A stretch of 32,000 bases of DNA from Geotalea daltonii FRC-32. GTDB lineage: Bacteria; Desulfobacterota; Desulfuromonadia; Geobacterales; Geobacteraceae. Below the pieces are notes generated by a model. The model was not told where the DNA came from, searched no databases, and saw nothing but the letters and a program-made list of their open reading frames with translations. Positions within the stretch are counted from its first letter, which is position 1. Each line of letters starts with the position of its first letter. A program made the position numbers and the translations under genes. Shown here piece by piece: positions 143-22,111 of this stretch. Where the stretch lies: NCBI RefSeq assembly GCF_000022265.1, contig NC_011979.1, forward strand, positions 3,690,001 to 3,722,000, given 5' to 3'.

Positions 143-1612
143 ATGGCCACAACTGATAGTACAAGTCATCGTCTCACTGAAGAAGTTCTCGGATTTATTC
201 AAGCAGGAGTTGACGCCGAGCTTTCGGATGCCCAATTCAATGACTATTCAATGCAACTGTTCGCATTGCAGTACCAGAACAACGCCATCTTCAGGGAATT
301 CTGCGACGCCAAGAAAGTCAAACCGGGTGATATCAGTCGCTGGCAGGATGTCCCTTTGGTCTACAATGATGTCTTCAAGACACATCTGGTTGCATCTTTT
401 CCTTTGGAACAGTCGGTGATGGCATGTCTGACCGGCGGCACAACCAGCCTCACCCAGCGCGGTCGCATTTTCAGGGATGAGGACGGGAAACGCCTCGTCT
501 TTGGTGCAAACAGGATGATGACCGAATCATACCTGTTCCCCGATTTTGAGGAGGGAAAACGTTGCCGCATCCTCATCCTTGCTCCTAGCCCTGAACTGGC
601 ACCATCCATGGGAATGGCCATCGGCATGGATCAGACAAGACAGGCGTTCGGCACTCCGGACAGCATGTTCCTGCTTGGAAAAACCGGCATTGACGTGAAA
701 AACCTGCTTACAGCACTACACGAAGCTGAGTCAAGCGGGATACCTGTGGCACTGATCGGCGCAACCGCTGCATATGTCTATTTCTTCCAGGCCTGCCGCC
801 GGAAAAAAATGAAATTCAAGCTTCCCCCAGGAAGCCGAGTCTGCGACGGCGGCGGTTATCGTGGGCGCTTCGGCGTAGTTACCCGCGATGATTACTATGA
901 AATGGTCAGAGAGATACTTGACGTTCCGGATACCCACTGTGTAAACGTTCTCGGTGAAGCCGAAACCGCCACCAATTTGTTTGACGATGCATTACGCCGC
1001 CATATGAAAGGTCTTTCGCCCCGCAAACGGGTTCGTCCTGTACCTCCATGGTCACGGGTGCTGGCCATGAATATCGACGATCTCAGCCCTCTGCCCGATG
1101 GCGAAGTCGGCTTGCTCGCCCATTGGGACCTGGCCAATGTACCGACTGTACTGGCCGTCATAACCGACAACCTCGGTTACACAACTGATAACGGTACCGG
1201 CTGTGAAATGGTGGGGCGTGCCAAAATTGAGAACGGCAAGGTATCACCGCTGCCTGATGAGGACCGGACCATGGGTCCCATGGGCGACAATGCCGTTTTC
1301 AGGATGTTGGAAGCGTACACCAACTTTTCCATTGACCTGAAGATGCGCTTTGCCAAAAGCCCCAAGGTCAAACCGAGCATCAGGGAAGAGGTCGAAGCAC
1401 GTCCCGGTTCTCTGCCGTCATGTCCCCAGGTCGTCGATGAGATCCTGGTTTCTCAGGCGAGCAAAGAAGCCGCAGAACTGCGCGACGCAGCCCTTGGGGC
1501 ATTCAAGGATCAAACCGAGCGGCCGCTTGACTGGTACAAGGCCGAAGAGAAAAAACAGGAACTGAAGGATCACCCTGCGGGACTGCAATCGGAAAAACTG
1601 CCAAAAAAATAA
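143..1612 (+). CDS. LuxE-like acyl-protein synthetase / ANL-superfamily adenylate-forming enzyme with a charged C-terminal tail
   Basis: 489-aa ORF with AGGAG 8 nt upstream of the ATG. The N-terminus 'LFALQYQNNAIFREFC...WQDVPLVYNDVFK' resembles the LuxE-family N-terminal signature. 'LTGGTTS' is an adenylation P-loop-like motif. The last ~100 aa are Lys/Glu-rich low complexity. Confidence 0.5.
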   Translation: MATTDSTSHRLTEEVLGFIQAGVDAELSDAQFNDYSMQLFALQYQNNAIFREFCDAKKVKPGDISRWQDVPLVYNDVFKTHLVASFPLEQSVMACLTGGTTSLTQRGRIFRDEDGKRLVFGANRMMTESYLFPDFEEGKRCRILILAPSPELAPSMGMAIGMDQTRQAFGTPDSMFLLGKTGIDVKNLLTALHEAESSGIPVALIGATAAYVYFFQACRRKKMKFKLPPGSRVCDGGGYRGRFGVVTRDDYYEMVREILDVPDTHCVNVLGEAETATNLFDDALRRHMKGLSPRKRVRPVPPWSRVLAMNIDDLSPLPDGEVGLLAHWDLANVPTVLAVITDNLGYTTDNGTGCEMVGRAKIENGKVSPLPDEDRTMGPMGDNAVFRMLEAYTNFSIDLKMRFAKSPKVKPSIREEVEARPGSLPSCPQVVDEILVSQASKEAAELRDAALGAFKDQTERPLDWYKAEEKKQELKDHPAGLQSEKLPKK

Positions 1613-1677: not shown

Positions 1678-3015
1678 TTATCCCATAATCTGTTTATCCC
1701 GGACAGCCCGCTGCTCTTCCTTCCATTTTTCATAGGCGATCTTCATCCCTTTGCGCACCGGCAGCTGATTCATCAGCGACAGGATATGGGCAAACGGAAA
1801 GCCAGACAGCGGCACATGACGCATATGGCTAAAGATCCTCCAGTTACTGAGAATTTCCAGAGATGTTTCGTAAAATGCCTCTTCTCGTGCTGCCGGTGTC
1901 ATTCGCGGATCGGGGTGATCAAAAAGTGCATATGCCCCGGTGTAATACTCCCAGCCAAGATCCTTATAGATGTATGGTTCATACTGACGACGCAACTCGG
2001 TACCCGGGTATGGCACAAGCAGCGAAGGATGCATGCTGACTCCCAGACGGTCCGCCAACTCCACGGAACGCTTGAAATCATCCAAGGAATCATTTCTCCC
2101 CCCCAGCATGTAAAACAATGAGACATCAATGCCATGGTCACGGAGGGTTCTGACGGCTCGTTCGCGGTCGACGCCAATTTTACCGTTTGCTTTGTAGGCG
2201 GTCAGAGAATCATCAGAAATGGCATCCCATCCCACCCAAACAGTCAGCATTCCGCTTTCCCGGGCGGCGTTCAGCATGCGTGAACCGCTGGGTGTCAATA
2301 CCGGGCGCAGGCTGCCGAAGCCCATCCACTTCTTGCCGCTCCCTCTAAGGGCAGTGAACATATCGATTGCACGCTGCTCGAATCCTTCCCACCAGATATT
2401 TTCATCTCCATTGATGTACATCTTCTCCGGAACGGCACAGACGTCACGCACCACATCCTCGATGGGGCGAAAGCGGATGCTTGCTCCATAAAAGGGTTTG
2501 ACTGAGCAGAAGGTGCAGTTATACGGGCAACCGCGGGAAGTATTGATGACACGGAACTGGTGCCCTCCGGAAAGTTTCCCGAAAAAGGGGGTTGGGAGAT
2601 CGTTGAGGGGGAGTTGCTCCCCCCGGTAGAACGGTTGCAGCCGGCCGGCCTTGAAGTCGCGCAGGACCTGCGGCCACGTTGATTCCGCCTCGCCGATGAC
2701 GACCGCATCCCCGTGGGATTTGGCCTCTTCCGGCATGGAGGAGGCATGGATACCGCCGAATACGACTTTTATGCCCTTAGCCCGAAGGGCATCGGCGATC
2801 ATATATCCCGGCACGGCTGTCGGGGTCAGGATGCTGATGGTTGCCAGGTCGCATTGGATTTTGTCGATGGCCTCGGGGGTGGCACTGGCGCTTATCAGCT
2901 CGATCTCGATATTGGGATCTTCCCTGTGCGTTAATGCCGCAAGATACTCAAGGATCGGCGGTGCGACCGGCGTCCAGCCGAAGGGAAGCGGAGGGAAGAT
3001 AATGCAGACTTTCAT
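1678..3015 (-). CDS. B12-binding domain radical SAM protein
   Basis: 445-aa ORF. The N-terminal Rossmann-like cobalamin-binding region is 'MKVCIIFPP...VVFGGIHAS'. The canonical radical SAM motif 'SRGCPYNCTFCS' (CX3CX2C) is present. GAAAGGTG lies upstream of the ATG. Confidence 0.85.
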   Translation of the reverse strand: MKVCIIFPPLPFGWTPVAPPILEYLAALTHREDPNIEIELISASATPEAIDKIQCDLATISILTPTAVPGYMIADALRAKGIKVVFGGIHASSMPEEAKSHGDAVVIGEAESTWPQVLRDFKAGRLQPFYRGEQLPLNDLPTPFFGKLSGGHQFRVINTSRGCPYNCTFCSVKPFYGASIRFRPIEDVVRDVCAVPEKMYINGDENIWWEGFEQRAIDMFTALRGSGKKWMGFGSLRPVLTPSGSRMLNAARESGMLTVWVGWDAISDDSLTAYKANGKIGVDRERAVRTLRDHGIDVSLFYMLGGRNDSLDDFKRSVELADRLGVSMHPSLLVPYPGTELRRQYEPYIYKDLGWEYYTGAYALFDHPDPRMTPAAREEAFYETSLEILSNWRIFSHMRHVPLSGFPFAHILSLMNQLPVRKGMKIAYEKWKEEQRAVRDKQIMG

Positions 3016-3058
3016 TTATAAAGCACCTTTCAAACTGCAACAACAGCGGAAACAAACA

Positions 3059-3592
3059 TCAGAGATCGAGTTTTTGGTTAGCATATATGGCATCGAGTAC
3101 CACCTTTGCATCAGCCCTGGGTGTTCGGTAAATCCTTCCGCCGCTTCGTATTTCGACGTTTGTCATCATCGCCAAACCATAGGCACCATCCGGATAGATG
3201 ACGAACTTTACTTCTATCCCTCTGGCGGTGATACCGGCGCTCCTCTTCTTGAAATCGAAAAGACCGGTGGGAATGTAGCCGACAAAGTCCACGAAGATAT
3301 TACCGTTCGCGGCCCTGGTCTCGCGCCATTCCCTCTTTTTGAAATACCCGTATTTGCCGAAAGCTTCGCCTATGGGCATTTTCGGGTATCCGGGAAGAAT
3401 GGCCTTCTGAATGACACCGGCCATATCCGTGGGACCTGCACTCGAACCGCTGGCGGTAGAGTGCGGAGATTGGTTCATGGCAGGAGTCACGCTTGGGACG
3501 ACGACACCTCGTTTTTCAAGTCCGGGCATGGCGTCAGCAGTGCCTAACAGTCCTACGATGCTGATTGCCGTAATCAATGTCATTGCGCGCAC
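3059..3592 (-). CDS. Secreted hypothetical protein (signal peptide, no recognisable domain)
   Basis: 177-aa ORF with a GTG start preceded by AAGGGG at 7 nt. The N-terminal hydrophobic segment 'MTLITAISIVGLLGTADA' looks like a signal peptide. No Cys or heme motifs. Confidence 0.55.
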   Translation of the reverse strand: MRAMTLITAISIVGLLGTADAMPGLEKRGVVVPSVTPAMNQSPHSTASGSSAGPTDMAGVIQKAILPGYPKMPIGEAFGKYGYFKKREWRETRAANGNIFVDFVGYIPTGLFDFKKRSAGITARGIEVKFVIYPDGAYGLAMMTNVEIRSGGRIYRTPRADAKVVLDAIYANQKLDL

Positions 3593-3611
3593 AGGTCAAC
3601 CCCTTTTCTTA

Positions 3612-4439
3612 CTAATTATGCTCGATGCGGAACCCGGAATGGAAGGTCTCCACACCGAAAGGGATACCCCAGTAACTTACGATCATGAAGATCAAAGCTA
3701 TCAACGCATACCAGGCAAGCCTGGTGCCTCGCCACCCAAAAGTAATGCGCAAGTGGAGATAAATCCCATAGACCAGCCATGAAACGAGCGACCAGACCTC
3801 CACCGGATCCCATCCCCAATAATTACCTTTTACCTGGTTCGACCAGAAGCAGCCTGAAATCATCATCAATCCATACATGATAAAGCCGCCAGAAACAAAG
3901 CGGTAAGACAACAGATCCAGTGCACCAAGGTCAGGCAACTTGTCATAAATCCCGCCCGATTTTCTTTCTTTCAGAAGGTACATCAGCCCTATGCCGGCAG
4001 CCACAAGTACGGAAGCAAATCCTGATGAGGCCCCTACTATGTGGACCCAAATCCACCCACTTTGCAATGCCGGGGAGAGTGACGTGGCTACTTCTTTCAT
4101 CATTGTTCCAGCCCAGCCGAGCAGTACAAAGGCCACCGGGATGACCAGCACCCCCAACGGCCGCAACCTCTTTGTGAACGCCTGAAAAGCGACAAAAATG
4201 AGGACCGCCATAAAGGTCCCAAGGGTAAGCGACTCGGAAATGTCGATAAACGGCGTGATGCCCGTTGCCGACCAGCGAAGGGCAATGGCTATGACATGGG
4301 GAATAAAACCAGCCACTGCGCTGTAGAGGCCAATGGTGAACAACTTCTCCTGTTTGGCAATCATGCCGAAGATATAACTAAAGGTACTCACGCCATACAG
4401 TGAAACAGCTGCCCAGAAAAACATCAGTGCCGGCTTCAT
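3612..4439 (-). CDS. ccsA: Cytochrome c biogenesis protein CcsA/ResC (System II heme lyase subunit)
   Basis: 275-aa polytopic membrane protein with the Trp-rich WWD-type motif 'YWGWDPVEVWSLVSWLVYGIYLH' and flanking conserved His residues. Strong SD AAGGGGGA upstream of the ATG. Confidence 0.85.
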   Translation of the reverse strand: MKPALMFFWAAVSLYGVSTFSYIFGMIAKQEKLFTIGLYSAVAGFIPHVIAIALRWSATGITPFIDISESLTLGTFMAVLIFVAFQAFTKRLRPLGVLVIPVAFVLLGWAGTMMKEVATSLSPALQSGWIWVHIVGASSGFASVLVAAGIGLMYLLKERKSGGIYDKLPDLGALDLLSYRFVSGGFIMYGLMMISGCFWSNQVKGNYWGWDPVEVWSLVSWLVYGIYLHLRITFGWRGTRLAWYALIALIFMIVSYWGIPFGVETFHSGFRIEHN

Positions 4440-4482
4440 TGTTCATCCCCCTTGTATACTAGAAATTCATTGGTAGTCGGCA

Positions 4483-5643
4483 TCACATCCGACTTCGCAT
4501 CATCCGCCCAATGGTTGTAATAAGCATCCCAGCCAGCCCTATCCAGAGGCTTGTCAACACTATCGGCTTGCCCGGTTCGTAACGAACGTTCATAGCCACC
4601 CAATAGCGGACCTCTTTCGGAGTAAGTCGGTAGCCAAAGGCAGAGAATGATTGCCCCACCGCAACCCTACCCTCTTTGATAATAAAGTCTCTGACTTCTT
4701 TATGGTCCTTTCCCAAAGGCATTACCACATAAGACACATCCCCGCCACCATAATTTGTGGAGGAAGGAGAGAAAGCAAGCTGCAATTCCATAAGCGGTCG
4801 CATGGGGTCCTGAGGAAACATAAACGGAGCAGGACCTTCTTTAGTGCCGGTGGTATATAGAAATGACTCGTCCTTTTGCCTTAGGCTCTGCAGAGGAAAA
4901 TGGGCTCCATATATTTCCTTGCCGGTGGAGTCGTTAAGTACCACCAGCAGTGAATATCCCTCCCGGTCCGTATAGTAAGTGAGTCCATGATGGGTCAGAT
5001 TATGGGTAATGTAGATAATGCCGTGACTCTTACGTCCGCTTTCGCCGACCTCGATCTCGTATGCAGCGCGTTTATCTTCTTTACCAACCCGGTACCCACG
5101 GTGCATTTTTATCAAGGATGCCTCACCTTTAAGGCGATCAATGGAAAAAAAACGCCCGTGCTCATACTTATCATAGCTGTTGAAATCGCCGCTGGGTAGA
5201 ATTTCCCCTTCGGTAAGTCTGATGTTTCCTCGAAAATAGAAGAGGCTGTTAAATACAATTCCGCAGAGAATAGCCACAAAGCTGATATGGAAAAGGATCA
5301 TGCCGAAGGAGATGATGGTGAGTTTTCTGTGCCAGATCCTGCCGAAAAAGCAGCAGGCCACATTTACGACAAGCAGCACCAGGATGCTGTTGAACCAGAG
5401 AGTGCTGAAGATCAATTCCCAGGCCCGTATTCCGCGGATTATCGTGACCCCGACAATACTGCATATCAAGATTGTCACAAGGAGCAGCATGGCTAATCTA
5501 GCCGATGCCAGGAAATCGTAGATCAGCCGAATTGTCTTGTGCACCGGGTGAAAGCGCGGCTGAAGAGGATAACTCTCCGGCTGTTCATCGGGACATGTCT
5601 CTGAATGAAGTTCGGTTTTATCTTGTAATTGCGACATTTCCAC
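4483..5643 (-). CDS. Cytochrome c biogenesis protein ResB/CcsB
   Basis: 386-aa ORF. Its ResB-type N-terminus is 'FLASARLAMLLLVTILICSIVGVTII...LWFNSILVLLVVNVACC'. It has a large central soluble domain and a C-terminal TM segment. It lies directly upstream of ccsA. The start is GTG at 5643 or ATG at 5637. Confidence 0.8.
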   Translation of the reverse strand: MEMSQLQDKTELHSETCPDEQPESYPLQPRFHPVHKTIRLIYDFLASARLAMLLLVTILICSIVGVTIIRGIRAWELIFSTLWFNSILVLLVVNVACCFFGRIWHRKLTIISFGMILFHISFVAILCGIVFNSLFYFRGNIRLTEGEILPSGDFNSYDKYEHGRFFSIDRLKGEASLIKMHRGYRVGKEDKRAAYEIEVGESGRKSHGIIYITHNLTHHGLTYYTDREGYSLLVVLNDSTGKEIYGAHFPLQSLRQKDESFLYTTGTKEGPAPFMFPQDPMRPLMELQLAFSPSSTNYGGGDVSYVVMPLGKDHKEVRDFIIKEGRVAVGQSFSAFGYRLTPKEVRYWVAMNVRYEPGKPIVLTSLWIGLAGMLITTIGRMMRSRM

Positions 5644-5779
5644 CTGCCGGCATGGATAATTTGTTCAAGGGAGAAATGATTTTAAAAGTCTGCAACCGCT
5701 GGTTCCCCAGCTCATCGCCACGATAAACCTAGCATAAATAATACAGCCGGTGCAACCAGATCCTGCCTAGAGATGGTTA

Positions 5780-7072
5780 TCAGAATAGGTTATCAACCTT
5801 CCACCAGAGAGTGCGACCGACTTTGGCACCATACCCGACAGTTTTACCGTCAGGAAATACCTGAATGTCCCATACCCCATCGTAATGAGGCAGTTCTCTG
5901 ACAGTATGACCTTGCAGGTCAGCGACAACGGCAAATCGCTCCCCATCCTTACGGGTACGATATACCACATGATTTCCATTCGGAATAAATTGCGGCGTAA
6001 CAACCTTGTCAAAGGCCGGACCATTTGCACCGTTCACCACAATAAAATTCTTAGGGCCGATTGCTGCGCCATAAACGAAATTCGATCCGTTTCGGCTAAA
6101 AGAAGGGAAATTTATGGAGTCATATGTATTGCCGGTATTTTTGCCGTTTAGAAAGGAAACAACTTTCCCGCCAAGAAAGCCAGTGTGGATGGTGTTGCCT
6201 GTTGAAGAAACCACCAGCTCAAAGACAGACTGGAGATTGTCGGTCTTATGCTTTACTCCGTCGACAACCAGGAAGGTTTCCCCCCTCTGACTCGCCAGAA
6301 AGGCAAGATGTTTGCCATTTTCAGAAAGATCCAAGGCAAAGATTTGATCGTACCACTCAGTTTCAACGGGCTTGGGGGCCGAACCATCGAGATCCAGCAT
6401 TATAACGGCACTCTGGCCATTCAAGGTAGCAGAATAAGCCAGATGTGTCTGTAATTCATCAAGGTTAACAAAACTTATGGAGTCATAATTCCTGTCTGTG
6501 ACACAACTTTTAAGCTTTTCACTGCAAATATGCAGAGCACTACCCTTTTGCTCTGCGACAAAGGCTACTTTTTTGGGGGAGGAAAGGAGAAAGGTATCGG
6601 AAATTGTGCCCTTGAAGGGTTCAATCTCCTTCCCATCCGATACCATCAGGGATTGGTCGCCTTGGGTTGCCGAATATATAACACGGCCGCTCCTGCTATA
6701 GGCAAGGTGGTTAATAGTGTCGTAGCTTTTTCCTTCCTTACCGTCCACGACCACAAGTTCTTTGCCCCCCTTTCTTGCGATATAGGCACACTCTGACCCC
6801 GATGGTGAAAATGCCGGACCTCGAACATGCTCGTAAAAGATACCCATCTTGTCGTTGATAACCATCGCTTCCTTACCGTTGGACTTCACGGCATACGCAA
6901 CCTTATTACCATCATCACTGAATAAGGCGTCGTCAAACTCAGCACCTTCAGGAATGTTTGCCAGGAGCGTAGATTTGGTGTTCAAGTCAGGTGATGTGGA
7001 ATGAGAACCTTTCTTGCAAGCGGAAAAAGCGAATATAACGACAATCATAGACAGAAGTATGCGCATTCTCAT
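5780..7072 (-). CDS. Lipoprotein with repeated beta-propeller-like (TolB/PD40-like) units
   Basis: 430-aa ORF with GGAGG 5 nt upstream of the ATG. The lipobox is 'IFAFSAC'. There are about 8-9 degenerate ~40-aa units of the form 'S.dG..vAY.a...gk..vvvdGk....yd.i'. Confidence 0.6.
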   Translation of the reverse strand: MRMRILLSMIVVIFAFSACKKGSHSTSPDLNTKSTLLANIPEGAEFDDALFSDDGNKVAYAVKSNGKEAMVINDKMGIFYEHVRGPAFSPSGSECAYIARKGGKELVVVDGKEGKSYDTINHLAYSRSGRVIYSATQGDQSLMVSDGKEIEPFKGTISDTFLLSSPKKVAFVAEQKGSALHICSEKLKSCVTDRNYDSISFVNLDELQTHLAYSATLNGQSAVIMLDLDGSAPKPVETEWYDQIFALDLSENGKHLAFLASQRGETFLVVDGVKHKTDNLQSVFELVVSSTGNTIHTGFLGGKVVSFLNGKNTGNTYDSINFPSFSRNGSNFVYGAAIGPKNFIVVNGANGPAFDKVVTPQFIPNGNHVVYRTRKDGERFAVVADLQGHTVRELPHYDGVWDIQVFPDGKTVGYGAKVGRTLWWKVDNLF

Positions 7073-7188: not shown

Positions 7189-10100
7189 CTAATAGGTACC
7201 GCCAACCGTATAGGTCTTGCCGGACTGGTTGGAACATGCGCCTCCGGTATAGGAAACCATGGAACATTGCGGACTGTAGGTACTTGAGCCGATCATCCGC
7301 GGTTGGTGGTTGCTCAGATTCATCCTGTTACGGATAAAGGCATACGGTCTGGTGTTCACCTGAGCAGGGGTGCCTGCCGATCCAAGCCACCGGACAGTTG
7401 CGGTAGCGCCTGTGGTCGGCAAGGCGTTGGTTCCGTGGAAGTTATCCGACCTTGCCGGGCGGGTGCCTGTGTTGGCATCTGCATGACAGTAATGACAGTT
7501 AAGGAAGGTAGTGCCGTTCATATCACCCGAAGTTGTAGTAAAGGCCGAACCGGTTGCGCCGGTATTGTGGCCCGGATAAGTATAGGTGAGGTGACATGAT
7601 GAGCAATGTGTCGGGCTGGACACATAAATAGTACCATTGGTCGTGGCGTTGCCGCCGCGAATCAGAACGTTGGCGTCGCCATGGGCTGAAATGGTGCGGA
7701 GTGTCTTCATTCCGGTAGTCTGGCCGGTGTTGTGACAATCGAAGCAACTCATAATTACACCAGAAGACTTTGTCCCAGAGGTACCGCGGGTGCCGGTCGG
7801 TTTGTAGGGATCGGCAAGTCGGGCAGCGGTTGGGTAGTCAGCCGAGCGGGCGGCACGTACCGGGTGCTTGGATGAGTTGGTCGGGTCGAACTGGCTGAAG
7901 GCATTAAGCACAGTATATCCTCCGCCAAAAGGAGCAGTGGGAGTTGGAGATGTTCCAGCTCTTGCCGTGGTGTTCGCAGCACCTCCAGAATCATGGCAGG
8001 TGAGGCAGAATTTCTGGGTAATTACACTGGCAACTGTATTGTTGATGGCCGAAGACCGGGTTCCTGAAGCAAATGATGTTGAGAAACGCTGGAAGGTGAA
8101 TGCCGCATTGTTATTATCGGTAATGGCAACCTCACCACTGCCATCGGGGTTCCGGAGATCGATATTTCCATCAGCGTGATATTTGGAGGTTTTCTGGGTG
8201 GTGAAGTTGCCCTCCAGGTGGCAGACGATACAGTCAGCATCTGCGACTGCGGTACGAGTTGATTTCTTGTGCCCGTAAGTCTTGCCGAACTCGGCCGTTA
8301 CAGCAGCAAGTTGCTTCCCTGGCCGGCCTTTCGTACGGGTGATGGCCGCTGCATGGCAATCGGTACACTTAAGGGTATTGAGCCCCCAGGTGGTGGTAAT
8401 GTGACAAGCAAGGGTACAGGTGGAGTAGCCGGAATTTGCCGGATGCTTGGCAACGTTGGCCGGGTAGCCCTGGTTCGTAACATCGATGTCTGTGTCGCCA
8501 TGGGCTGCGTTGGCATAGCTCTGGGTTACTGTATTGGAGACGGCGCCGGTATGGCACTCATCACAGATATAACGGCCATAGTTCATGTGAGCCGAATGAC
8601 TGCCGGTGTTGGGACCCTTCTGGTTGGAAGGTGAGGAGTAGGTAATGAAAGCGCCGGCTACGTTGTGGCATGCGCCACAACCTGCGCCCGTGCTGCCCCA
8701 GGCTGGTGTCGAGCCAGCGCCTGAGCCGTAGGGGCTTCCATGACAGGTTGTGCTGCAAGTGCGGTTACTGTAACCATCGTTGGCTGGGTGCTTGGTAACG
8801 TTAGTCTGGTAGCCGACGTTTACTATGTCGATATCACCATCGGTGTGACCATTGGCAACTGACGGTGCGGCGGTTGCCGAAGTCCCTGTCGCGTGGCAGT
8901 TGGTACATGCATAGGCGCTGTGAGTACCATGGCCGCCGGTTGCCGGGCCACTTGCGCCGATAGGATAGGCGGAGTGGCAGGCGGAGCAACCATTGTTGGT
9001 GGTGCCCCATTGTGGCGTGAGTGATGATCCCGTGGTGCTGTAGACATTGCCATGGCAGCTTGCGCTAGAACATTTTGAGGTTGCGCTGCTCCAGCCAAGT
9101 GCCGAGTCAAGATTTACGACAGCAGGGTTGGTGGTGGTGTTACCACTATTTCCGGGCCCGTGATCGGCATTGCCGCCGGAGCCGCCGATATTGTGGCAAG
9201 TGGTACAACCGTTGGTAGCGGCCGGGACGTGGACGGAGTGATTGCCTGCTACATCCGGGTGAACGGTGCCGTTAGGTTCGCCGGTACCGCCTGCAGCACC
9301 ATGGCAGCTGCCGCAGCCGATGTTGGCGGTCAGAGGATCCCCCTTGGTGTGACAGGACTGACAGTTAGGTGGCGTGCCGCCAGTCGCTGGGTAGGTACCA
9401 GCAGGTGTACTGTTGGTATGGCAGCCTATGCCGCTGGAACAATCGGTGTGGCCGGCACTGGTAGCATAAAGTGGAACAGTGTGGCCATTGCCCTTGAAGC
9501 CTTTGTTGTGGGGGTGGCACTTGATGCATTCCGCCCGGTTGTAATGGGTATTGGAAGTCACGGATTTACCGACTGACTTGACGGAAGAGCTATATTGATG
9601 GAAATTTGTCTGGTGGTGGCAGACTTCGCAGATATTGGTCGAACGGTTCAGGGTCGACCGCTGATCGTTACCGAAGAGATCCATGGCATTCGTCACGGTG
9701 GAGGTCATCCGTGAGAAGGTAACGCTTCTTGTGCCTGTTGGGGTGGCAATCTGCTGAGCAACCTGCTTGACGTTATTGGTACCGGCGGTGTGGCACCAGG
9801 TGCAGTCTTTGCCGGCGCCCCAATTGCCGTAGCCTTTGGCGTTGCTTGGATCAAGATTCGCTGCACTGTGCATCAGGGGATTTACGTAGGCAGTAGTGGA
9901 AGTAGACCCGGTCACTATGCCGTTTGCCGGGGTGCGGCCATCAGCGTCAGTGAATGTCGCCTGGAAATAGTAGATAGTTGATTCAGCAAGGTTATTGATG
10001 GTAGCAACATAGGAGCTGCCGGATTTTGCGGAGGTTGCTGTGTTAGGATAGGTCCCATTGACAGTACCCCACTTGATGACACAGCTGTTATTGTTGTTAT

Positions 10101-11772
10101 CGTCACCTGTAAAAGGTGCAGTCACCGTGATCGAGTTGCTGGTAACGCCCGAATAGCTAAGCGCTCCTGCAGTGGTGCCGTTAACAGCAGCGGCACGAGT
10201 GACGGTAACCGTGTAGGTCTTGGTTGTAGTGCCGTCTTGGGCAGTGACGACCGTGGTAATGGTGTTTGACCCGACCACAAGGGCTATGGGAGCGGATGCC
10301 GTACCGCTGGCAACGGTGGTGCCGTTCACTTTAACTGTTGCAGTCGCGTCCTCAACCGTGGGAGTCACTGTAATTGAGGCAACGGGGTTAGCGACCGAGG
10401 CCGTGTAGGATATGGTTCCGCTGGCAAAAGCAGGGCTCAAGGTACCGGAAGACAGCACCAGGTTGCTCAGATTTGCATTTGTTGAAGCAGCGGCCGCACG
10501 TGTAACGACAACGGTGTATGTCTTGGTGGTTGTGCCATCTTGTGCAGTAACGACAGTTGTTATGGTGTTTGCGCCCACACTCAGTGCAATCGGGCCGGAA
10601 GCCGTACCACTGTTGACTGCAGTGCCGTTTACGGTGGTGGTGGCGGTGGTATCAGCCTCGGTGGGTGTTACTGTAATGGAGGAAACGGAGTTTGCTACCG
10701 AGGCGGTGTATGAGGTAGTTGCACTGGAGAAAGCAGGTGACAGCGTACCGCTGGACAGAACAAGATTACTCAGATCTGCATTTGAGGAGCCTGCTCGGGT
10801 AACAACCACTGTGTAGGTTTTGGTCGTAACGCCATCTTGGGCTGTTACGACAGTTGTGATCGTATTGGAGCCGACTGCAAGGGAAATGGGGCCGGAAGCA
10901 GTACCACTGTTGACAGCAACTCCATTAACAGTTGTCGTAGCCGTCGTGTCCGCCTCTGTCGGCGTAACGGTAATAGACGAGACGGAATTGGCGACAGAAG
11001 CGGTATAGGAGGTGGTCGTGCTACTGAAGGTAGGCGTCAATGTCCCAGACGAGAGCACTAAATTGCTAAGGTTGGCATTATTGGAAGCCGCGACAACCTC
11101 ATTAACAATCAAAACACCAGAAGTTCCTGTTCCGGCCGTATCAGCTGTAGATCCCCAGTATACCCGCTTAGCAGTTGATGTACCCGCTGTCGCTCGAACA
11201 CGGATGCCGAGCTTGGCACCGACAGGAACAGTCGCAGATTGTCCTGTCAATGACAGAGTGACTGTTGAATCTCCTACCGATGCCACCGCCGATGTCACTT
11301 CAGTGCCGGTGAAATCTGTTTTTGTCCCGCTCGAAGTCACATAAAATAACCTGACACCGGCAGTCCATCCACCAGACCCACTGTCGCGAAGCCTTACTTT
11401 AAAGGAGGTGCCTGTTACCGTGGTGGCAACAGCATATGCAGAATTAAAATACGCCTCCACAATAGTGCCTGCACCGGAAACAGTATGGACAGCACGCTGA
11501 CTGGCGCAAGCAAAAGCGGATGTATCCATTAGGGTTGTAACAGCCCCGGTATTATTTGTTCCGCATGCACTCGAGTCGGTCAAAACTCCGGTTGCGACCG
11601 TGGTCCCTGAATTGACCTGAAGATTATAGGTCACTGAAGCGGCCATGATTTCATGTGGCTTATACCACCCCTCATACATGAACACCGACAGGGTCAAAGT
11701 AAACAGCACCGTCAATGCCACCTTTGCCCACAGATTCAATCCTCGGATCTTCTTAGCGATAACCTTACCCAT
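7189..11772 (-). CDS. Giant membrane-anchored multiheme c-type cytochrome (~20 heme motifs) fused to three cadherin-like beta-sandwich repeats and an FN3-like segment
   Basis: 1527-aa ORF with SD AAGGGG upstream. The N-terminal basic plus hydrophobic anchor spans aa 1-33. Three ~100-aa repeats of the form '[38 protein letters not shown]...[10 protein letters not shown]' span aa 232-526. There are 16 CXXCH motifs between aa 657 and 1430, plus CX5CH (aa 778), CX4CH (aa 901), CX3CH (aa 1006) and CX3CH (aa 1119). Confidence 0.9.
10195..11079 (-). repeat. Three tandem ~300-bp coding repeats (cadherin-like domains) inside the cytochrome gene
   Basis: The protein repeat period is 99-101 aa (L235, L334, L435). 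The same periodicity shows in the antisense shadow ORFs at 10220, 10412 and 10820, which have near-identical translations. Confidence 0.85.
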
Positions 11773-12322
11773 AATCTCTACCCCTTAGTCAAGTAGTAAT
11801 CAAAATATATTAAAAGAAGCCTTTTCATCCGCGCTTGTCTTTAAATAATAAAATTCTAGGAGCTAATGAATGCAAAAACAGTACCCATAATCTAGACAGT
11901 AACCCTCCCATTAAAGTACAGCACCAAGCAAGGTCTGAAAACGGCTGGTTTAAAACAATAATTTTCTGGCTATCACGAGGTTTGCGTGGATATTTTTTTA
12001 TACGAATATGTGCCCCCGAGTAAATTCAACAGGTTATCCCAATGCCGTATCCACTCCCCCCCTTTCAATTTTGCCGGCAGCGCAAGATCCATTACGTTGT
12101 AAAACGGACGCCGATAGTCATTTGACCATTGATGCAATAGCGAGGAACCAAAGTCGAAATTGCCCGGAACCTTATATACATTATTAGCAATTGTCAAGAT
12201 ACATGTCTTACTGATCTTTTACGCCGCAGTTCAAAAGCATGACCCCGAGCCCAAAATTGTTGTTTAGCGTTGTTTAGTCTGTTAGATTACCTCCATATCC
12301 ATTTTGATTGGAGACCCACTAT

Positions 12323-13246
12323 ATGGTCCACGGAATCTTCAGCAGGCATTATTTATTTCTGCTATTCATCCTGCTAATACTTGCGATGTCTTCGATGGCA
12401 GGCTGCCGGGAGCGGAGCAAGAGGCCGATGATGCGCATCGGCTATATGAATTGCAATAACGAGCAGGAGACAATGGCACGTTTTCAGCCCCTTACCCGTT
12501 ATCTCTCGGAAAAGCTCAATGTTGATTTCGTGGCCGTCCCGGTTGATACCCATGATTTCGAAAAGCGATTCCGCGATGGCGAATTTGCCTTCACCCATAC
12601 GAACTCCCTACTCTATATAATTCTCCGTGAGAACTACCAACTGCAAATTATTGCCTCCGACAAGCGCGGCAATTTCGGCTCCCGTACCGGCGGCGCCATT
12701 ATCGCCCGCAAAGGGAGCGGCATAAACAAGCTGTCCGACATCCGCGGCAAAAGGATGGTCTTTGGGCCGATGCTGGCCCCAACCGGCTACCTTGCCGAGT
12801 ACGACCTGATGCTGCGGTCAGGCATCGACCCGGAGAAAGATCTCGCCTTTTACGCCATCCCTTCAGGTTCATACAAACACGAAAAACTGGTTTACGGGGT
12901 GCTTTTCGGGCAGTATGACGTTGGTGCTGCCCCTCTGCTGGATCTTGAGGTTATGGCACGGGAAGGGAAAATATCCCCCGATGATTTTGTCATTATTGGC
13001 CAGACACCCCTCATCCCATACTGCACTTTCGGAGCAGCAACCAAGACCGATCCTGAGCTTGTCGCAAGGTTCCGCCAAGCGCTACTCGAACTGAAACCGA
13101 CCGATACCGTGGAAATCAACGGCGAGCAGGTCAAGGTGCTGAAGGCTGCCTGGGCCGATGGATATGAGCAGCTGCTTGACAAGGACTATGACACGATTCG
13201 CGACATGGCCCGCCGTGTGAATATGCCCCCCTATCAAAAATACTGA
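12323..13246 (+). CDS. PhnD-family periplasmic substrate-binding protein (phosphonate/phosphite-type fold), lipoprotein-like N-terminus
   Basis: PhnD-like pattern: 'RIGYM...LTRYLSEKLNVDF...' and 'GGAIIARKGSGINKLSDIRGKRMVFGPMLAPTGYL...YDVGAAP'. ATG at 12323 is preferred over TTG at 12308 because GGAG at 12309-12312 then sits ~10 nt upstream. 'SSMAGC' is a lipobox-like signal. Confidence 0.7.
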   Translation: MVHGIFSRHYLFLLFILLILAMSSMAGCRERSKRPMMRIGYMNCNNEQETMARFQPLTRYLSEKLNVDFVAVPVDTHDFEKRFRDGEFAFTHTNSLLYIILRENYQLQIIASDKRGNFGSRTGGAIIARKGSGINKLSDIRGKRMVFGPMLAPTGYLAEYDLMLRSGIDPEKDLAFYAIPSGSYKHEKLVYGVLFGQYDVGAAPLLDLEVMAREGKISPDDFVIIGQTPLIPYCTFGAATKTDPELVARFRQALLELKPTDTVEINGEQVKVLKAAWADGYEQLLDKDYDTIRDMARRVNMPPYQKY

Positions 13247-13253
13247 GGCTCGT

Positions 13254-13796
13254 GTGTTTAAAGACCGATTCGATAAGTTGCTCTGGCTGTTACTGTTCAT
13301 GGTATTTGCGGCCCTGGCCATGCTGATTGGCAGGCATACCTCATCCGGTAAAACAAACGCCCCAGCCGTCGCCACCTCAAAAGCAATGGAAAGGGAGATG
13401 GCTTTCCAGGCACGAGTCACCCTGCTGCAAAAACTATATGCTCCCGTGGAGGACCTGCGCCTGCGTGGTGACATGCAGGGAGCCCTCCTGCGACTGGATG
13501 AGCTCAACCGTTCCTACCCGGGTGAAGCCCACGGTTATATAATGAAAGGTCAGATCCTCCATCAGGCAGGGGCAATAGAAGAAGCCGTTTCCAGTTATGT
13601 CCAGGGCATAAAATTAAGCGGCAACTACATTGACCGTAAAAATCCCCTGTCAAGACGAGATGACGTAAAACGTCTTGTCGAGGAAGGACAGCAGATAATC
13701 AGGAGAGCCAGGGCTAACCCGGACAACATTTCCCTGGCCGCTGCAGTTAAAAATATCAATTACCTTAGAAGCCGCCTTGCAGGGGGATGTGAGTAA
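13254..13796 (+). CDS. Membrane-anchored TPR-like protein
   Basis: 180-aa ORF with a GTG start. N-terminal TM 'LLWLLLFMVFAALAMLI'. TPR-like helix pairs 'AHGYIMKGQILHQAGAIEEAVSSYVQGIKL'. Only 7 nt after the upstream stop. Confidence 0.5.
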   Translation: MFKDRFDKLLWLLLFMVFAALAMLIGRHTSSGKTNAPAVATSKAMEREMAFQARVTLLQKLYAPVEDLRLRGDMQGALLRLDELNRSYPGEAHGYIMKGQILHQAGAIEEAVSSYVQGIKLSGNYIDRKNPLSRRDDVKRLVEEGQQIIRRARANPDNISLAAAVKNINYLRSRLAGGCE

Positions 13797-13798
13797 GA

Positions 13799-14863
13799 AT
13801 GAATCTGAAAGACCGGCATTTCTGGATCATTGTTGTTACCGGTGCTTTGATGGGGACTTTCGGAGTGCTGCTCTCCGTCTGGGGTAATCCCGAAAACTCC
13901 GGCATCTGTGTTTCATGCTTTATCGAGAACAGTGTGGGGGCATTGGGTTTCCACGACAACTCACGCATGCAGTACCTGCGTCCTGAACTGGTCGGTTTTG
14001 TCTTGGGCGCCATGTTGAGCGCCGCCGCTTTCAGGGAGTTTCGTGCCCATGGGGGCAACAATCCGCTGCCACGGTTGATTGCCGGGATATTCCTGATAAT
14101 CGGTTGCGCCGTCTTTATAGGCTGCCCTATCAAGCTGTTTCTCCGTTTGACAGCCGGGGACCTCACTGCTTTGGCTGGAGTTGCCGGCCTGGTTGCAGGT
14201 GTCTGGATCGGTCTCAAGGGATTGGCCAATGGTGTAGAATTGGGGAGTTCCGGAAAGCAAACCGGCAGCAGCGGTCTGCTTATCCCTGCTTTTTTTTGCA
14301 TCTTGCTGCTGTTTATGATATTCCCGCCGGCATTCATCCTCTCTTCAGGCACAGGAAGCGCAGCACAATATGCACCAATGGCCGTTTCCCTTGGCGTCGG
14401 TCTGTTGCTCGGAGCCTTTGCCCAGCGAAGCAGATTCTGCATCACCGGTAGTGTCCGCGACGCTATTCTAATGGGTTTCAGGTCCCATATGCCATGGGGA
14501 TTCTTGGCCTTCGTTGCTGCAGGAACTGTCACCAGCATCAGCTCCGGCAGATTTCATCCCGGTATGTTCGGACAACCGGGAGCCCATCTGGACCATCTAT
14601 GGAGTTTTCTCGGAATGCTCTTGGCAGGCTGGATATCGGTGCTGATCGGCGGCTGCCCGTTCCGACAGCTGATAAAATCAGGTGAAGGAGACGCAGATGC
14701 GGGTCTGGTGGTCGTTGGAATGCTTATCGGCGGTGCCGTCGTACAATCATGGACACTGGCAGGAACCGCCGCCGGTGTTCCTTTTTACGGTAAAGTGGCA
14801 GTTCTCGCCGGCTTCATATTTATTCTGCTGACATGCTTGCTGAGCCGCGAGCGTCAAGACTGA
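13799..14863 (+). CDS. yedE: YedE/YeeE-family sulfur/selenium-compound transporter
   Basis: 354-aa polytopic protein. The N-terminal signature is 'WGNPENSGICVSCF', and the second-half conserved Cys lies in 'SRFCITGS'. The ATG is 2 nt after the upstream stop. Confidence 0.75.
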   Translation: MNLKDRHFWIIVVTGALMGTFGVLLSVWGNPENSGICVSCFIENSVGALGFHDNSRMQYLRPELVGFVLGAMLSAAAFREFRAHGGNNPLPRLIAGIFLIIGCAVFIGCPIKLFLRLTAGDLTALAGVAGLVAGVWIGLKGLANGVELGSSGKQTGSSGLLIPAFFCILLLFMIFPPAFILSSGTGSAAQYAPMAVSLGVGLLLGAFAQRSRFCITGSVRDAILMGFRSHMPWGFLAFVAAGTVTSISSGRFHPGMFGQPGAHLDHLWSFLGMLLAGWISVLIGGCPFRQLIKSGEGDADAGLVVVGMLIGGAVVQSWTLAGTAAGVPFYGKVAVLAGFIFILLTCLLSRERQD

Positions 14864-14874: not shown

Positions 14875-15762
14875 TTAACGGCAACAGGGATCAGGTTCAT
14901 CCCAGGAACCGCCGGCAAAATATCCCCTGCCACGGCACCCGCCAAAGCAACCCGACAGCTCTAAGCACCCGTCGCACCCTTTGGGCGTCTTCATCAAGTT
15001 CTCCCGCAAGCTTCTTTTTGCCATCGAATGCACAATTGATGACAGTGTCATCTCCTTGAGATTCCCCAAGGCCACGGGAAGAGACGGACAGGGGTAAACA
15101 TCACCGCTGGCCGTGATGCTAAGCATGGTATTGGCTGCCTGGCAACTCCCTTCCGGAAAATGAAGGGTCGGGAAGAACACCCGCCACAAAAAAGGGTCGT
15201 GGATAACAACCTGCATTTTGTCAGGCTTGACCACCTCTTTTATTCCATCGGAGAGTTTCTGCCGCTGTTGCCTGTCCAAGGCAAAATAGCCTCCACCACA
15301 GGAGAGCCGTTGCATGGGCAATACCAGTGATAAACCATGATTGGCGCAGAACGAGTATATCTCCGGCAGCTGATGGTAATTATCAGCTGCAACGGCAAAA
15401 GAGATCCCTGGTACCGGTACGCCGGCAGTTCGGAAATCATGGCGATTCACTCGGGCAAGGTCTGCTGATTCTTCAATAGCCACATAGAGATTTCTAAGGC
15501 GGTAATGGCAGATCTGATCCAGAAGTGCAGGAGTAATGGTCGCCAGGGGAATGGTCAAAGAAAGGGCAATCTGAACCGGGGAAAATAATTCCAGTAATGG
15601 CAGGTAAATGGCGCCGGGAGTGGCCTTCGTAGCGGTGAGATCGAGACTGAGTATCTTCAGCACTATGATCTGCTCACCGACACTGAGACAATCATTATCA
15701 GCAGCGTCGGCAGGCAAATCCCAGTAAATCCTGATGGGAGTTTTCAGCTCACTGAAATTCAT
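14875..15762 (-). CDS. SPASM-domain protein lacking the radical SAM CX3CX2C cluster (GeoRSP-type SPASM partner)
   Basis: A full SPASM cysteine pattern is present: 'C-X17-C' (ending 'GDVYPC') followed by 'CDGCLELSGCFGGC' (CX2CX5CX3C) and a C-terminal 'DPCC'. There is no CX3CX2C anywhere after Met27. The start at 15762 forms an ATGA overlap with the upstream stop. The longer 321-aa ORF-track form overlaps the upstream gene out of frame. Confidence 0.75.
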   Translation of the reverse strand: MNFSELKTPIRIYWDLPADAADNDCLSVGEQIIVLKILSLDLTATKATPGAIYLPLLELFSPVQIALSLTIPLATITPALLDQICHYRLRNLYVAIEESADLARVNRHDFRTAGVPVPGISFAVAADNYHQLPEIYSFCANHGLSLVLPMQRLSCGGGYFALDRQQRQKLSDGIKEVVKPDKMQVVIHDPFLWRVFFPTLHFPEGSCQAANTMLSITASGDVYPCPSLPVALGNLKEMTLSSIVHSMAKRSLRENLMKTPKGCDGCLELSGCFGGCRGRGYFAGGSWDEPDPCCR

Positions 15763-16757
15763 GGCTGCCAGCAGTGGGGATCGGGACTGTTGAAATCGCC
15801 GGTCAACGCAAGGGCACGGGCACTGCAGCCTCCAAGGCATTCATTGTAGTCGCTGCAGCCGACACATTTACCTGTCGCCACTTTGTTGCGCAGCTTTTCC
15901 AGAATCGATGAGCTCTTCCATAGCTCCCGAAGGTCGTCGGCAAGGATATTGCCGATGACGATGGGTATGAAACCGCAGGGGGTAATGTCGCCATTGGACT
16001 TTATGTTCAGGGACAGCTTGCCGCAGACACTCCCCTTGACCATGTTGTTGGTGTCATGCATTCCCAATGAGGCGATTATCGGATCATCCAGGGAGATGTC
16101 CAGCTTACGCCCCCGCTGTTTTTCCATTATCGCCTCTGCGTAAAATGACTGCCATTCCTCAGGTGTCAGGTCCAGATCATCCCTGTTGGAATAACCGAGG
16201 CCCGAACATTTGAAATTGTGGAAGTTGAGCTGCTCCACATGGAGTTTTTCCGCCAAATCTATGAGCGGAGCAACGTCACGGTGGTTCAACTTGCAGATAA
16301 CTGTGGAGATGGAAGTCTTTATTCCTGCCTCCTGCAAGTATGCCAAAGCATTTACGGCACGCCCGTGGCTGCCGGACACACCACGGAAATGGTCATGGAT
16401 GGCAGGAACGTGGCTGTCGATACTGATGCCCACCTTGCTGAACCCGGCCTCTTTCAATTCCAGGGCTTTCTTGCGGTCGATGAGGTAACCATTGCTGTTC
16501 ATGGATACTCGCATGCCGCTTTGGGCAGCACAAGAAGCGATCGTCGCCAAGTCCTGACGCAGCAGCGGCTCGCCACCGCCGAAATTGACCGACATGACAC
16601 CAGCCGTGGCAACTTTCTCAAGACACTGGCATAACATACTGCAGTCTATTTCTTTCATGGCATCATTGCGGCTATAGCAGTGGCGGCAGGCGAAGTTGCA
16701 GTTATTGTTGACAGCCCAGTTTATCGTAAGCGGTGCCTTAAGCTGAATTTCACCCAT
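15759..16757 (-). CDS. Radical SAM/SPASM-domain maturase
   Basis: 'CNFACRHC' is a CX3CX2C motif, followed by 'GGGEPLL'. The SPASM pattern is 'C-X15-C' (ending 'GDITPC') followed by 'CVGCSDYNECLGGC' (CX2CX5CX3C) and 'DPHC'. The start at 16757 (MGEIQL) overlaps the PqqD-like stop as ATGGGTGA. Confidence 0.85.
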   Translation of the reverse strand: MGEIQLKAPLTINWAVNNNCNFACRHCYSRNDAMKEIDCSMLCQCLEKVATAGVMSVNFGGGEPLLRQDLATIASCAAQSGMRVSMNSNGYLIDRKKALELKEAGFSKVGISIDSHVPAIHDHFRGVSGSHGRAVNALAYLQEAGIKTSISTVICKLNHRDVAPLIDLAEKLHVEQLNFHNFKCSGLGYSNRDDLDLTPEEWQSFYAEAIMEKQRGRKLDISLDDPIIASLGMHDTNNMVKGSVCGKLSLNIKSNGDITPCGFIPIVIGNILADDLRELWKSSSILEKLRNKVATGKCVGCSDYNECLGGCSARALALTGDFNSPDPHCWQP

Positions 16758-17106: not shown

Positions 17107-17131
17107 GAAAGGCAAAGGGCCGACAGGGAAT

Positions 17132-18061: not shown

Positions 18062-18080
18062 CCGCAAAGCAGACTGTGCA

Positions 18081-18659: not shown

Positions 18660-18680
18660 AAAACATCCTCCTCGCATCAG

Positions 18681-22106: not shown

Positions 22107-22111
22107 ATATG

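Follow-up and report, generated by a model that had tools for sequence, protein, structure and literature searches.

The stretch of the Geotalea daltonii FRC-32 genome analyzed here (the window, 32 kb) contains, in the interval 1678–7072, a set of genes which includes a ResB/CcsA pair of the System II cytochrome c synthase type and a cobalamin-dependent radical S-adenosylmethionine (SAM) enzyme, here termed rSAM-A, and which adjoins the gene of a giant multiheme cytochrome c. The explanation that accounts best for the data, and that we regard as moderately probable, is that this set supplies giant cytochromes with an accessory cytochrome c synthase, to which a tailoring unit is coupled, heme being the leading candidate for the substrate of this unit. 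The core of the module, which consists of CcsA, rSAM-A, and a LuxE-like enzyme encoded next to rSAM-A, is kept across Desulfobacterota, Nitrospirota, and Myxococcota.

The minus strand of this interval, read from 7072 to 1678, carries five co-directional open reading frames (ORFs) of 430, 386, 275, 177, and 445 amino acids (aa), and the spacers between them, computed from the coordinates, are 136, 43, 19, and 43 nt long. In this order the ORFs encode a probable PD40/TolB-like propeller lipoprotein (5780–7072; NCBIfam and PDB matches), a ResB/CcsB-like System II subunit (4483–5643; PF05140), the heme-handling subunit CcsA/ResC (3612–4439; PF01578), a small secreted protein without family match, termed p177 (3059–3592), and rSAM-A (1678–3015; Pfam). 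Because homologues of each were found elsewhere in a similar order, the five are real genes rather than chance ORFs. On the same strand, the gene of the giant 1527-aa multiheme cytochrome c is located at 7189–11772, as determined from Pfam and NCBIfam matches and the list of heme motifs, while the gene of the 489-aa LuxE-like acyl-adenylate-forming enzyme (143–1612, plus strand; PF04443) converges on that of rSAM-A. A terminator scan placed an intrinsic-terminator-like hairpin in the spacer between the cytochrome and the maturation genes (7163–7140, minus strand), with a 10-bp stem that contains eight G-C pairs and is followed by 10 T, and another hairpin with a 13-bp stem between the convergent rSAM-A and LuxE-like genes (1626–1654), where the minus-strand T-run makes a clear terminator and the plus-strand T-run a weaker one. 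Since the hairpin at 7163–7140 separates them, the co-transcription of the cytochrome gene with the module is uncertain. The ATG of the propeller gene at 7072 is preceded by a GGAGG ribosome-binding site, and the genes from the propeller to rSAM-A, which presumably form an operon, are probably expressed by read-through or from a promoter within the spacer of ∼67 nt. A promoter scan gave 13 matches against 11.2 expected from shuffled sequence, and no promoter is claimed. The five genes with their gaps, the terminators, the WWD motif of CcsA, and the CX3-5CH motifs of the cytochrome had been described in a first-pass annotation, and all were recovered by the ORF list, the terminator scan, and the family scans. 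Its statement that the window contains no CcdA/ResA genes agrees with the lack of any Pfam or NCBIfam match to these proteins among the ORFs scanned in the first 22 kb, the remaining large ORFs, which were outside the scan, resembling pheST, infC, and thrS by translation.

The ResB/CcsA pair was compared with the fused System II synthase CcsBA of H. hepaticus (7S9Y). CcsA matched PF01578 with 111 bits and aligned with residues 669–898 of CcsBA (E 6.7e-15), which span the WWD region. Its own WWD domain is W208-G-W210-D211, and the motif WGWDP, which extends to P212, is at least 97% conserved in 78 sequences. Two histidines, H133 and H229, flank this domain, while H267 is located near the C terminus; they are kept in 100%, 99%, and 97% of the 78 sequences, respectively, and each is placed opposite a histidine of CcsBA. 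The ResB gene lies 43 nt upstream of ccsA, and its product matched PF05140 with 40 bits (cut-off 24.6). By inspection, the N-terminal part of ResB carries three transmembrane helices and the C-terminal part one, with ∼215 aa of periplasmic domain between them, and at 386 aa the protein is shorter than B. subtilis ResB. It aligned with residues 10–113 of CcsBA (E 0.004), where its H119, conserved in 100% of 41 sequences from related loci, is opposite the histidine of the LLLHASF motif. We take H133, H229, and H267 of CcsA and H119 of ResB to be the P-His and TM-His heme ligands of CcsBA, with H133 and H229 as P-His1 and P-His2, H267 as TM-His2, and H119 as TM-His1. The fact that CcsA and ResB keep every heme-handling histidine suggests that together they likely form an active System II synthase. 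Hence, the initial assignment of the pair stands, as the motifs, histidines, and alignments of a working synthase are all present.

The intact catalytic residues, together with the lack of a second CcsA within the 32-kb window, would also fit the possibility that ResB/CcsA is the general System II synthase of the organism, which is located beside the giant cytochrome gene incidentally. We consider this very unlikely. The CcsA score against the housekeeping equivalog TIGR03144 was 166.8 bits, below the cut-off of 187.6, which fits a diverged paralogue and does not affect the assignment to the System II superfamily. Additionally, related Geobacter species hold four such pairs, according to a published comparison (PMC2700814), and the ppcA-adjacent pair GSU0613/0614, which is orthologously conserved in both species compared there, was detected in proteomes (PMC7894505). 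Finally, the arrangement of the pair with the rSAM and LuxE genes beside giant cytochromes recurs in three phyla. In our view, the pair is probably a cytochrome-dedicated System II paralogue. The CcsA protein is probably annotated elsewhere with a later start, as a protein of 270 aa. The homologue listing comprised the closest 120 matches, all of which were orthologues at 75% identity or higher, and the nearest named relative among the homologues listed for CcsA and p177 was Geotalea toluenoxydans, with 94% identity in CcsA and 65% in p177.

The conservation of the gene neighborhood was analyzed using a genome-contig search with rSAM-A, which gave 76 loci from Geobacteraceae and other Desulfuromonadales, Nitrospirota (including Thermodesulfovibrionia), and Anaeromyxobacter and other Myxococcota. 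ORFs were called in these loci and compared with the proteins of the window; presence was counted only in loci with enough flanking sequence, and the denominators vary by gene. The data showed that 68 of 71 loci contain a CcsA orthologue with at least 62% identity near rSAM-A, in most cases no more than 1.2 kb upstream of it, and that 62 of 71 contain LuxE next to rSAM-A, in the same direction in some loci and inverted in others. Of the evaluable loci, 42 of 62 contained ResB and 28 of 52 the propeller gene, and in 31 of 50 a cytochrome with eight or more heme motifs was encoded within 10 kb of rSAM-A. In G. pickeringii and in a Thermodesulfovibrionia metagenome-assembled genome (MAG), the order is giant cytochrome, propeller, ResB, CcsA, small protein, rSAM, and LuxE. 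A reverse test, in which loci were picked by CcsA similarity alone, showed rSAM-A, LuxE, and a small membrane protein of 116–131 aa in three of three loci, one of which contained a toxin–antitoxin insertion that left the set together, and linkage to cytochromes was likewise seen in loci L082 and L084. The linkage of CcsA, rSAM, and LuxE also withstands the inversion of LuxE, the insertion of glycosyltransferase genes, and the relocation of the propeller gene. In several Desulfuromonadales, ResB is separated from CcsA by 7–8 kb of PMT_2/TPR, glycosyltransferase family 2 (GT2), and methyltransferase genes, and several genomes of this order contain a second CcsA (55–61% identical), which is located beside LuxE without a second ResB.

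The rates of divergence differ among the genes of the module. The mean identity between phyla was 76–78% for LuxE, 72–77% for rSAM-A, 65–74% for CcsA, and 47–57% for ResB, while the identity to the window proteins was 28–78% for the cytochrome, 26–65% for p177, and 28–41% for the propeller protein. This ranking is the reverse of the pattern expected for a stray neighbor, which argues that rSAM-A is not one. The first-pass annotation had singled out the rSAM gene as an unusual member of the cluster, and it is indeed among the most tightly linked and best conserved genes. Synteny of the pair with giant-cytochrome loci, which had been set beforehand as a test, holds in relatives and in two other phyla. 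This cross-phylum synteny gives better support to the reading of the pair as a dedicated lyase, and we infer from it that the pair is dedicated to giant cytochromes. Our literature searches found no description of a linkage of CcsA, LuxE, and a B12/radical SAM enzyme near multiheme cytochromes; hence, the identification of rSAM and LuxE as core, constrained partners of a CcsA subfamily in three phyla appears to be the new part of these observations.

The cytochrome of the window contains 20 heme motifs, of which 16 are CXXCH, two CX3CH, one CX4CH, and one CX5CH, and all of them are located in its C-terminal part. The N-terminal ∼600 aa contain no heme motif, but instead three very similar cadherin-like β-sandwich repeats rich in Thr, Ser, and Ala. 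Pfam detected a Cadherin-like domain (212 bits) as well as Cytochrome_C7 and MtrC/MtrF domains, while the NCBIfam model TIGR01904, which describes the CxxxxCH/CxxCH domain, was matched with 35.5 bits (cut-off 27). A positive GC skew, +0.16 to +0.19 when read on the plus strand, also sets the gene apart. Nearly all linked cytochromes contain CX3-5CH sites besides CXXCH; in most loci they are 28–49% identical, they range in length from ∼500 to >2700 residues, and those that adjoin the module vary in number and size among related genomes. CX4CH sites are matured in Desulfovibrio c3 cytochromes without a special lyase. As ordinary systems mature CX3CH and CX4CH sites elsewhere, a special lyase is not required for them, and a specificity of the pair for CX3-5CH sites, as opposed to giant cytochromes as whole substrates, may not be needed.

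The sequence of rSAM-A contains an N-terminal cobalamin domain (B12-binding PF02310, 38 bits) and a Radical_SAM domain (PF04055, 44 bits), as well as the cluster motif C163-x3-C167-x2-C170, in which all three cysteines are 100% conserved. On the basis of these features rSAM-A is assigned to the class B (cobalamin-dependent) radical SAM enzymes. The protein is 71–90% identical across the three phyla, and among the matches listed there were more than 100 close homologues, 76–85% identical, from Geobacteraceae, Thermodesulfovibrionia, and other Nitrospirota. It belongs to no characterized subfamily, as the NCBIfam scores were far under the cut-offs (the best was TIGR04013 with 75.8 bits against 251), and none of 10 family members scanned reached a named NCBIfam model. 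A search of a representative library placed it in a large unnamed B12-rSAM family at ∼35% identity, and the nearest 50%-identity clusters are also unnamed. The best PDB match was MgmA (9CCB) in the sequence search (E 1.5e-14) as well as in the fold search (E 1e-11), followed by OxsB, AprD4, CysS, TsrM, and TokK; the leading fold matches are thus all cobalamin-dependent radical SAM enzymes or near relatives of such enzymes. As the structure model of rSAM-A was of moderate quality (mean predicted local distance difference test score, pLDDT, 67.6), the fold search confirms the enzyme class and not the substrate. An additional paralogue of rSAM-A, 47–52% identical and often in tandem, is present in many genomes; the loci with this paralogue or with the second CcsA of several Desulfuromonadales are L021, L023, L026, L027, L037, L045, L051, L052, L055, L061, L072, and L082.

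The match to MgmA bears on the possibility that the rSAM, the LuxE-like enzyme, a small membrane protein, and a BchE-like enzyme, the last two described below, modify a protein, for example, by C-methylation and acylation. The target would be the apocytochrome before its export by Sec, or CcsA/ResB, while the pair would still be a dedicated synthase. Apocytochromes are exported unfolded, and in this state they would be reachable by cytoplasmic enzymes. Furthermore, the nearest solved relative of rSAM-A, MgmA, C-methylates a glutamine of a protein, methyl-coenzyme M reductase (PMC11796369), the Pfam family of the LuxE-like enzyme is named for an acyl-protein synthetase, and the PMT_2/TPR and GT2 glycosyltransferases of related clusters point to other modifications of cytochromes. 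On the other hand, cytochromes that are 28–49% identical and from ∼500 to >2700 residues long would be unusual protein substrates for enzymes conserved at 72–78%. Moreover, no RRE/PqqD-like recognition domain was detected in rSAM-A by Pfam or NCBIfam, and p177 is too poorly conserved, and present in too few loci (29 of 71), to serve as an obligate substrate. Hence, we regard protein modification as unlikely. The presence of enzymes under strong constraint next to a cytochrome that is weakly conserved agrees better with a small molecule than with a protein as the substrate.

The LuxE-like protein matched PF04443 over residues 31–358 with 57 bits (cut-off 24.9) and the LuxE structure 7XC6_E with an E value of 9.6e-12, and each of its eight cysteines is kept by 95% or more of the orthologues. 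It is not an equivalog of the bioluminescence LuxE, as its NF052244 score was 60 bits against a cut-off of 550, and no match to the luxC or luxD families was detected by Pfam or NCBIfam among the window ORFs scanned. The gene is inverted in FRC-32 relative to G. pickeringii and the Nitrospirota loci, and it still adjoins rSAM-A. The unit delimited by the first-pass annotation was incomplete at this side: the convergent LuxE-like gene shares the 1626–1654 hairpin and belongs to the module, and two further members are located beyond the left edge of the window. The genes to the left of the window were read from locus L080, whose sequence agrees with that of the window over 10.3 kb at 99.9% identity; a second contig, L081, is 100% identical over 13 kb. 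Beyond LuxE, region 10705–15361 of L080 encodes a 117-aa membrane protein, a BchE-like B12-rSAM, the cobalt-type T component CbiQ of an energy-coupling factor transporter (TIGR02454, 141 bits), an ATP-binding cassette (ABC) ATPase, and a CarboxypepD_reg protein. The membrane protein contains two invariant histidines, H16 and H97, shows a weak CopD-like match, and is present in 49 of 59 evaluable loci. The BchE-like enzyme (502 aa), which was found in 45 of the 59, scored 403.1 bits against the BchE model TIGR02026 (cut-off 481.35), with residues 5–457 aligned to positions 1–457 of the 497 in the model. Its next best family scored 163 bits, generic B12-rSAMs reach ∼90–100 bits against the BchE model, and rSAM-A is only 23% identical to the BchE-like enzyme. 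Hence, this second rSAM is BchE-like rather than BchE. The transporter genes occur in only about five loci; a cobalt transporter beside two cobalamin enzymes may serve cofactor supply. An Rfam scan of the window and L080 detected no cobalamin or other riboswitch, and only an L20 leader and two tRNAs were found.

LuxE canonically activates fatty acids, in line with its family description, and the rSAM and LuxE-like genes could alternatively belong to a pathway for an envelope lipid or glycoconjugate, which rides with the cytochrome island and has no direct role in maturation. This would agree with the weak matches of rSAM-A to TIGR04072 (56 bits), a model of lipid-biosynthesis B12-rSAMs, and to HpnR and HpnJ of the hopanoid pathway, with the GT-C (PMT_2), GT2, and methyltransferase genes interleaved in several clusters, and with the glycosyltransferases that PMC2700814 lists in the G. 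metallireducens cluster. However, the scores for lipid families were all far under the cut-offs, the tightest neighbor of the rSAM is CcsA (68 of 71 loci), the window is devoid of any glycosyltransferase, and the linkage persists through rearrangements and in three phyla. These data make the lipid or glycan pathway quite unlikely. In several Desulfuromonadales and in the Thermodesulfovibrionia MAG (L002), glycosyltransferases (PMT_2/TPR GT-C and GT2), a methyltransferase, and a further B12-rSAM are inserted into the ResB/CcsA or the rSAM/LuxE interval (L012, 1051–8501; L084, 2830–7763 and 10279–12696; L002, 4827–8876). None of these genes is present in the window, and the inserted glycosyltransferases suggest periplasmic glycosylation of the Thr/Ser-rich cytochromes.

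In the explanation that we prefer, the accessory synthase with its tailoring unit, CcsA would take heme b across the membrane to the periplasmic WWD site, and CcsA and ResB would attach it to the giant cytochrome from the adjacent upstream gene, which is exported by Sec and is still unfolded, while the propeller lipoprotein and p177 would act as fast-evolving periplasmic helpers. The two rSAM enzymes, the LuxE-like enzyme, and the two-histidine membrane protein would form a cytoplasmic and membrane tailoring unit functionally tied to CcsA. This unit may act before export on the cargo of CcsA, which is heme or a close tetrapyrrole derivative, with the apocytochrome as the next likeliest target. 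We consider it reasonably probable that the rSAM and LuxE enzymes share a process with CcsA. A small-molecule substrate is favored because the enzymes are better conserved than the candidate protein substrates, because the ligand of CcsA is heme, and because one partner is specifically BchE-like. That heme itself is the substrate of the rSAM and LuxE enzymes is proposed only tentatively, and we would call it doubtful. The further step, that the product of the module is a chemically tailored heme, which it installs on giant extracellular cytochromes, is speculative and rather improbable. In this scheme, the LuxE-like enzyme could activate a heme propionate as an acyl-adenylate or thioester, and this adenylation would stand in for the methyl-esterification that precedes BchE. 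In the cytoplasm or at the membrane, the macrocycle might then be oxidized, cyclized, or methylated by the BchE-like enzyme, rSAM-A, or both. An intermediate may be bound by the two-histidine membrane protein, and the co-evolved CcsA would export the product and attach it, with ResB, to the giant extracellular cytochromes.

Several observations weigh against the preferred explanation. The tie of the module to the cytochromes is a predicted one, a strong terminator sits between the cytochrome gene and the maturation genes, and the number of System II pairs in FRC-32 is estimated from related species. In many loci, ResB, the propeller gene, and a large cytochrome gene are missing from the 10-kb flanks, which is explained partly by short flanks and partly by inserted genes. 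Ordinary systems suffice for CX3CH and CX4CH sites in other bacteria, as noted above, and the canonical substrate of LuxE is a fatty acid. The rSAM-A protein is without a tetrapyrrole-specific signature and scored 32 bits against the BchE model, its weak NCBIfam matches include lipid-modifying enzymes, and its nearest solved relative, MgmA, acts on a protein. The BchE-like enzyme falls short of the BchE cut-off and is encoded outside the window, and its gene is missing from G. pickeringii, while none was seen in the G. sulfurreducens column of the table in PMC2700814.

The two proposed periplasmic helpers both evolve fast. The propeller protein, with PD40/TolB-like repeats, showed partial NCBIfam matches to TmcD_fam (74.7 bits) and TolB and matched TolB chains in the PDB with E values of about 6e-7. 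Inspection revealed a probable lipobox, FSAC, with Cys19 as its cysteine. The protein is fast-evolving, with orthologues 28–41% identical, and in 14 of 26 loci its gene directly follows that of a multiheme cytochrome; it is presumed to be a periplasmic helper. The p177 protein consists of a Sec-type signal peptide, recognized by inspection, a disordered linker, and a compact α+β domain (residues 57–177), and it has no cysteine. Its AlphaFold model reached pLDDT values >90 for residues 57–177, while a fold search against the PDB gave no match at E ≤ 0.001, and no Pfam or NCBIfam family was matched. Only 12 homologues of this fast-evolving protein were found, and it was detected in 29 of 71 loci. 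The Sec signal, the 26–65% identity among homologues, and this pattern of detection led us to reject p177 as a RiPP-like (ribosomally synthesized and post-translationally modified peptide) substrate of the rSAM.

The window contains a second maturation-like set on the minus strand (14875–21856). It consists of genes for an 826-aa NosD-like β-helix protein (19376–21856), a CarboxypepD_reg protein (18681–19379), an OpuAC-like protein (18081–18677), a second ResB-like protein without a CcsA partner (17132–18067), the GeoRSP PqqD (16750–17205), the GeoRSP rSAM/SPASM protein (15759–16805; TIGR04303, 690 bits, with NirJ2/AhbD next best at ∼182 bits), and the GeoRSP SPASM-only protein (14875–15840; TIGR04304, 535 bits). 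In G. pickeringii, the GeoRSP/NosD/second-ResB set is contiguous with the ResB, CcsA, rSAM, and LuxE genes. The GeoRSP, NosD-like, and second ResB genes were considered as core members and rejected; because they occur with the module in only a few Geobacteraceae loci (L001, L026, L052, and L074), the set is regarded as associated and not core, and literature searches on GeoRSP found nothing that ties it to a linkage with the module. Between the cytochrome and the GeoRSP genes, the plus strand (12308–14863) encodes a periplasmic binding protein of the PhnD type (PF12974, 164 bits), a TPR protein, and a membrane protein for sulfur transport that resembles YeeE/YedE (PF04143, 30.5 bits); homologues of these proteins adjoin the module in L026 and L074. 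Type II secretion and pseudopilin genes (secretin, T2SSF, N_methyl) adjoin the module in the Thermodesulfovibrionia MAG (L002, 15058–21347), and a pseudopilin gene adjoins LuxE in L083 (9553–10200); such neighbors could possibly provide an export route for giant cytochromes. The right half of the window (22033–29685) contains housekeeping genes and RNA elements. These are pheT (22845–25250), pheS (25280–26296), infC (27093–27557), and thrS (27627–29564), all recognized by translation, and, from Rfam, an L20 leader of the Deltaproteobacteria type (26730–26790) and two tRNAs (22033–22106 and 29614–29685). They are followed by an ABC-2 permease ORF with a weak Pfam match and an ABC ATPase gene recognized by translation (30571–31961).

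Giant cytochromes with 20 to 70 hemes are common in metal-reducing and electroactive bacteria, and their maturation, export, and role are obscure (PMC11492766; bioRxiv 10.1101/2022.05.22.492868). Should heme or the cytochrome be the target of the tailoring enzymes, the biogenesis of c-type cytochromes would include a previously undescribed chemical step, with consequences for redox tuning in long-range electron transfer and for the heterologous expression of giant cytochromes. A tailored heme would be the first modified c-type heme that comes from a dedicated pathway coupled to System II. If the enzymes act elsewhere, the result still indicates which Geobacter synthase pair serves the giant cytochromes.

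The features of the module can be compared with those of several known systems. Wolinella succinogenes has extra System II paralogues, as in our reading of FRC-32, with NrfI serving CXXCK, CcsA1 serving CX15CH, and CcsA2 serving CXXCH sites. The Wolinella enzymes are fused CcsBA proteins, while the ResB and CcsA of FRC-32 are separate, and we know of no radical SAM or adenylating partner of the Wolinella lyases. According to a review, nrfI is located within the nrfHAIJ operon and serves the non-standard CXXCK site. BchE oxidizes and cyclizes an activated (esterified) propionate side chain of a tetrapyrrole (PMC13598231). It is the cobalamin-dependent Mg-protoporphyrin IX monomethyl ester cyclase, and the second rSAM of the module aligns over the full BchE model. 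A BchM-type partner for methyl-esterification was not seen in the module, and the LuxE-like adenylating enzyme is present instead. To our knowledge, the lineages that bear the module have no members known as phototrophs. The glutamine C-methyltransferase MgmA shares with rSAM-A the N-terminal cobalamin domain and the CX3CX2C core, while the identity in the fold alignment was ∼18%, the score of rSAM-A against TIGR04014 was 55.5 bits compared to a cut-off of 360, and the genomic context is unrelated.

A close likeness is found in Geobacter. In the study by Aklujkar et al. (2009; PMC2700814), the four ResB/ResC pairs of G. sulfurreducens and of G. metallireducens are located beside multiheme cytochrome genes, and each pair was proposed to serve the cytochromes encoded nearby. 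Its Table S5 lists, as "cytochrome c biogenesis gene cluster #3," the acyl-protein synthetase GSU2893, GSU2892, the ResB-like GSU2891, the ResC-like GSU2890, the hypothetical protein GSU2889, the radical SAM protein GSU2888, and the 27-heme cytochrome GSU2887, with the counterparts Gmet_0592–0597, and no other pair in that table has genes for both an acyl-protein synthetase and a radical SAM protein entered beside it. As in FRC-32, the order in GSU2888–GSU2893/Gmet_0592–0597 is ResB, ResC/HemX, hypothetical protein, and rSAM, the acyl-protein synthetase being described as "rearranged" between the species, and the cluster adjoins cytochromes with 23 to 27 hemes. This match of the FRC-32 genes to the GSU and Gmet genes is one of gene order and annotation in the source rather than of sequence comparison, while in G. 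pickeringii, which was compared directly, ResB, CcsA, rSAM, and LuxE are 61–78% identical. Because Table S5 holds the same set in the same order, the first-pass inference of a dedicated lyase is not new, and corresponds to a hypothesis published in 2009 (PMC2700814). In the accessible part of that paper, the rSAM and the synthetase are listed without discussion and conservation beyond Geobacter is not mentioned, and our literature searches on GSU2888–GSU2893 found only listings and mentions in proteome or transcriptome data. The likeness of this cluster to the FRC-32 module makes GSU2888–GSU2893 concrete and genetically tractable candidates for studies of the function of the module.

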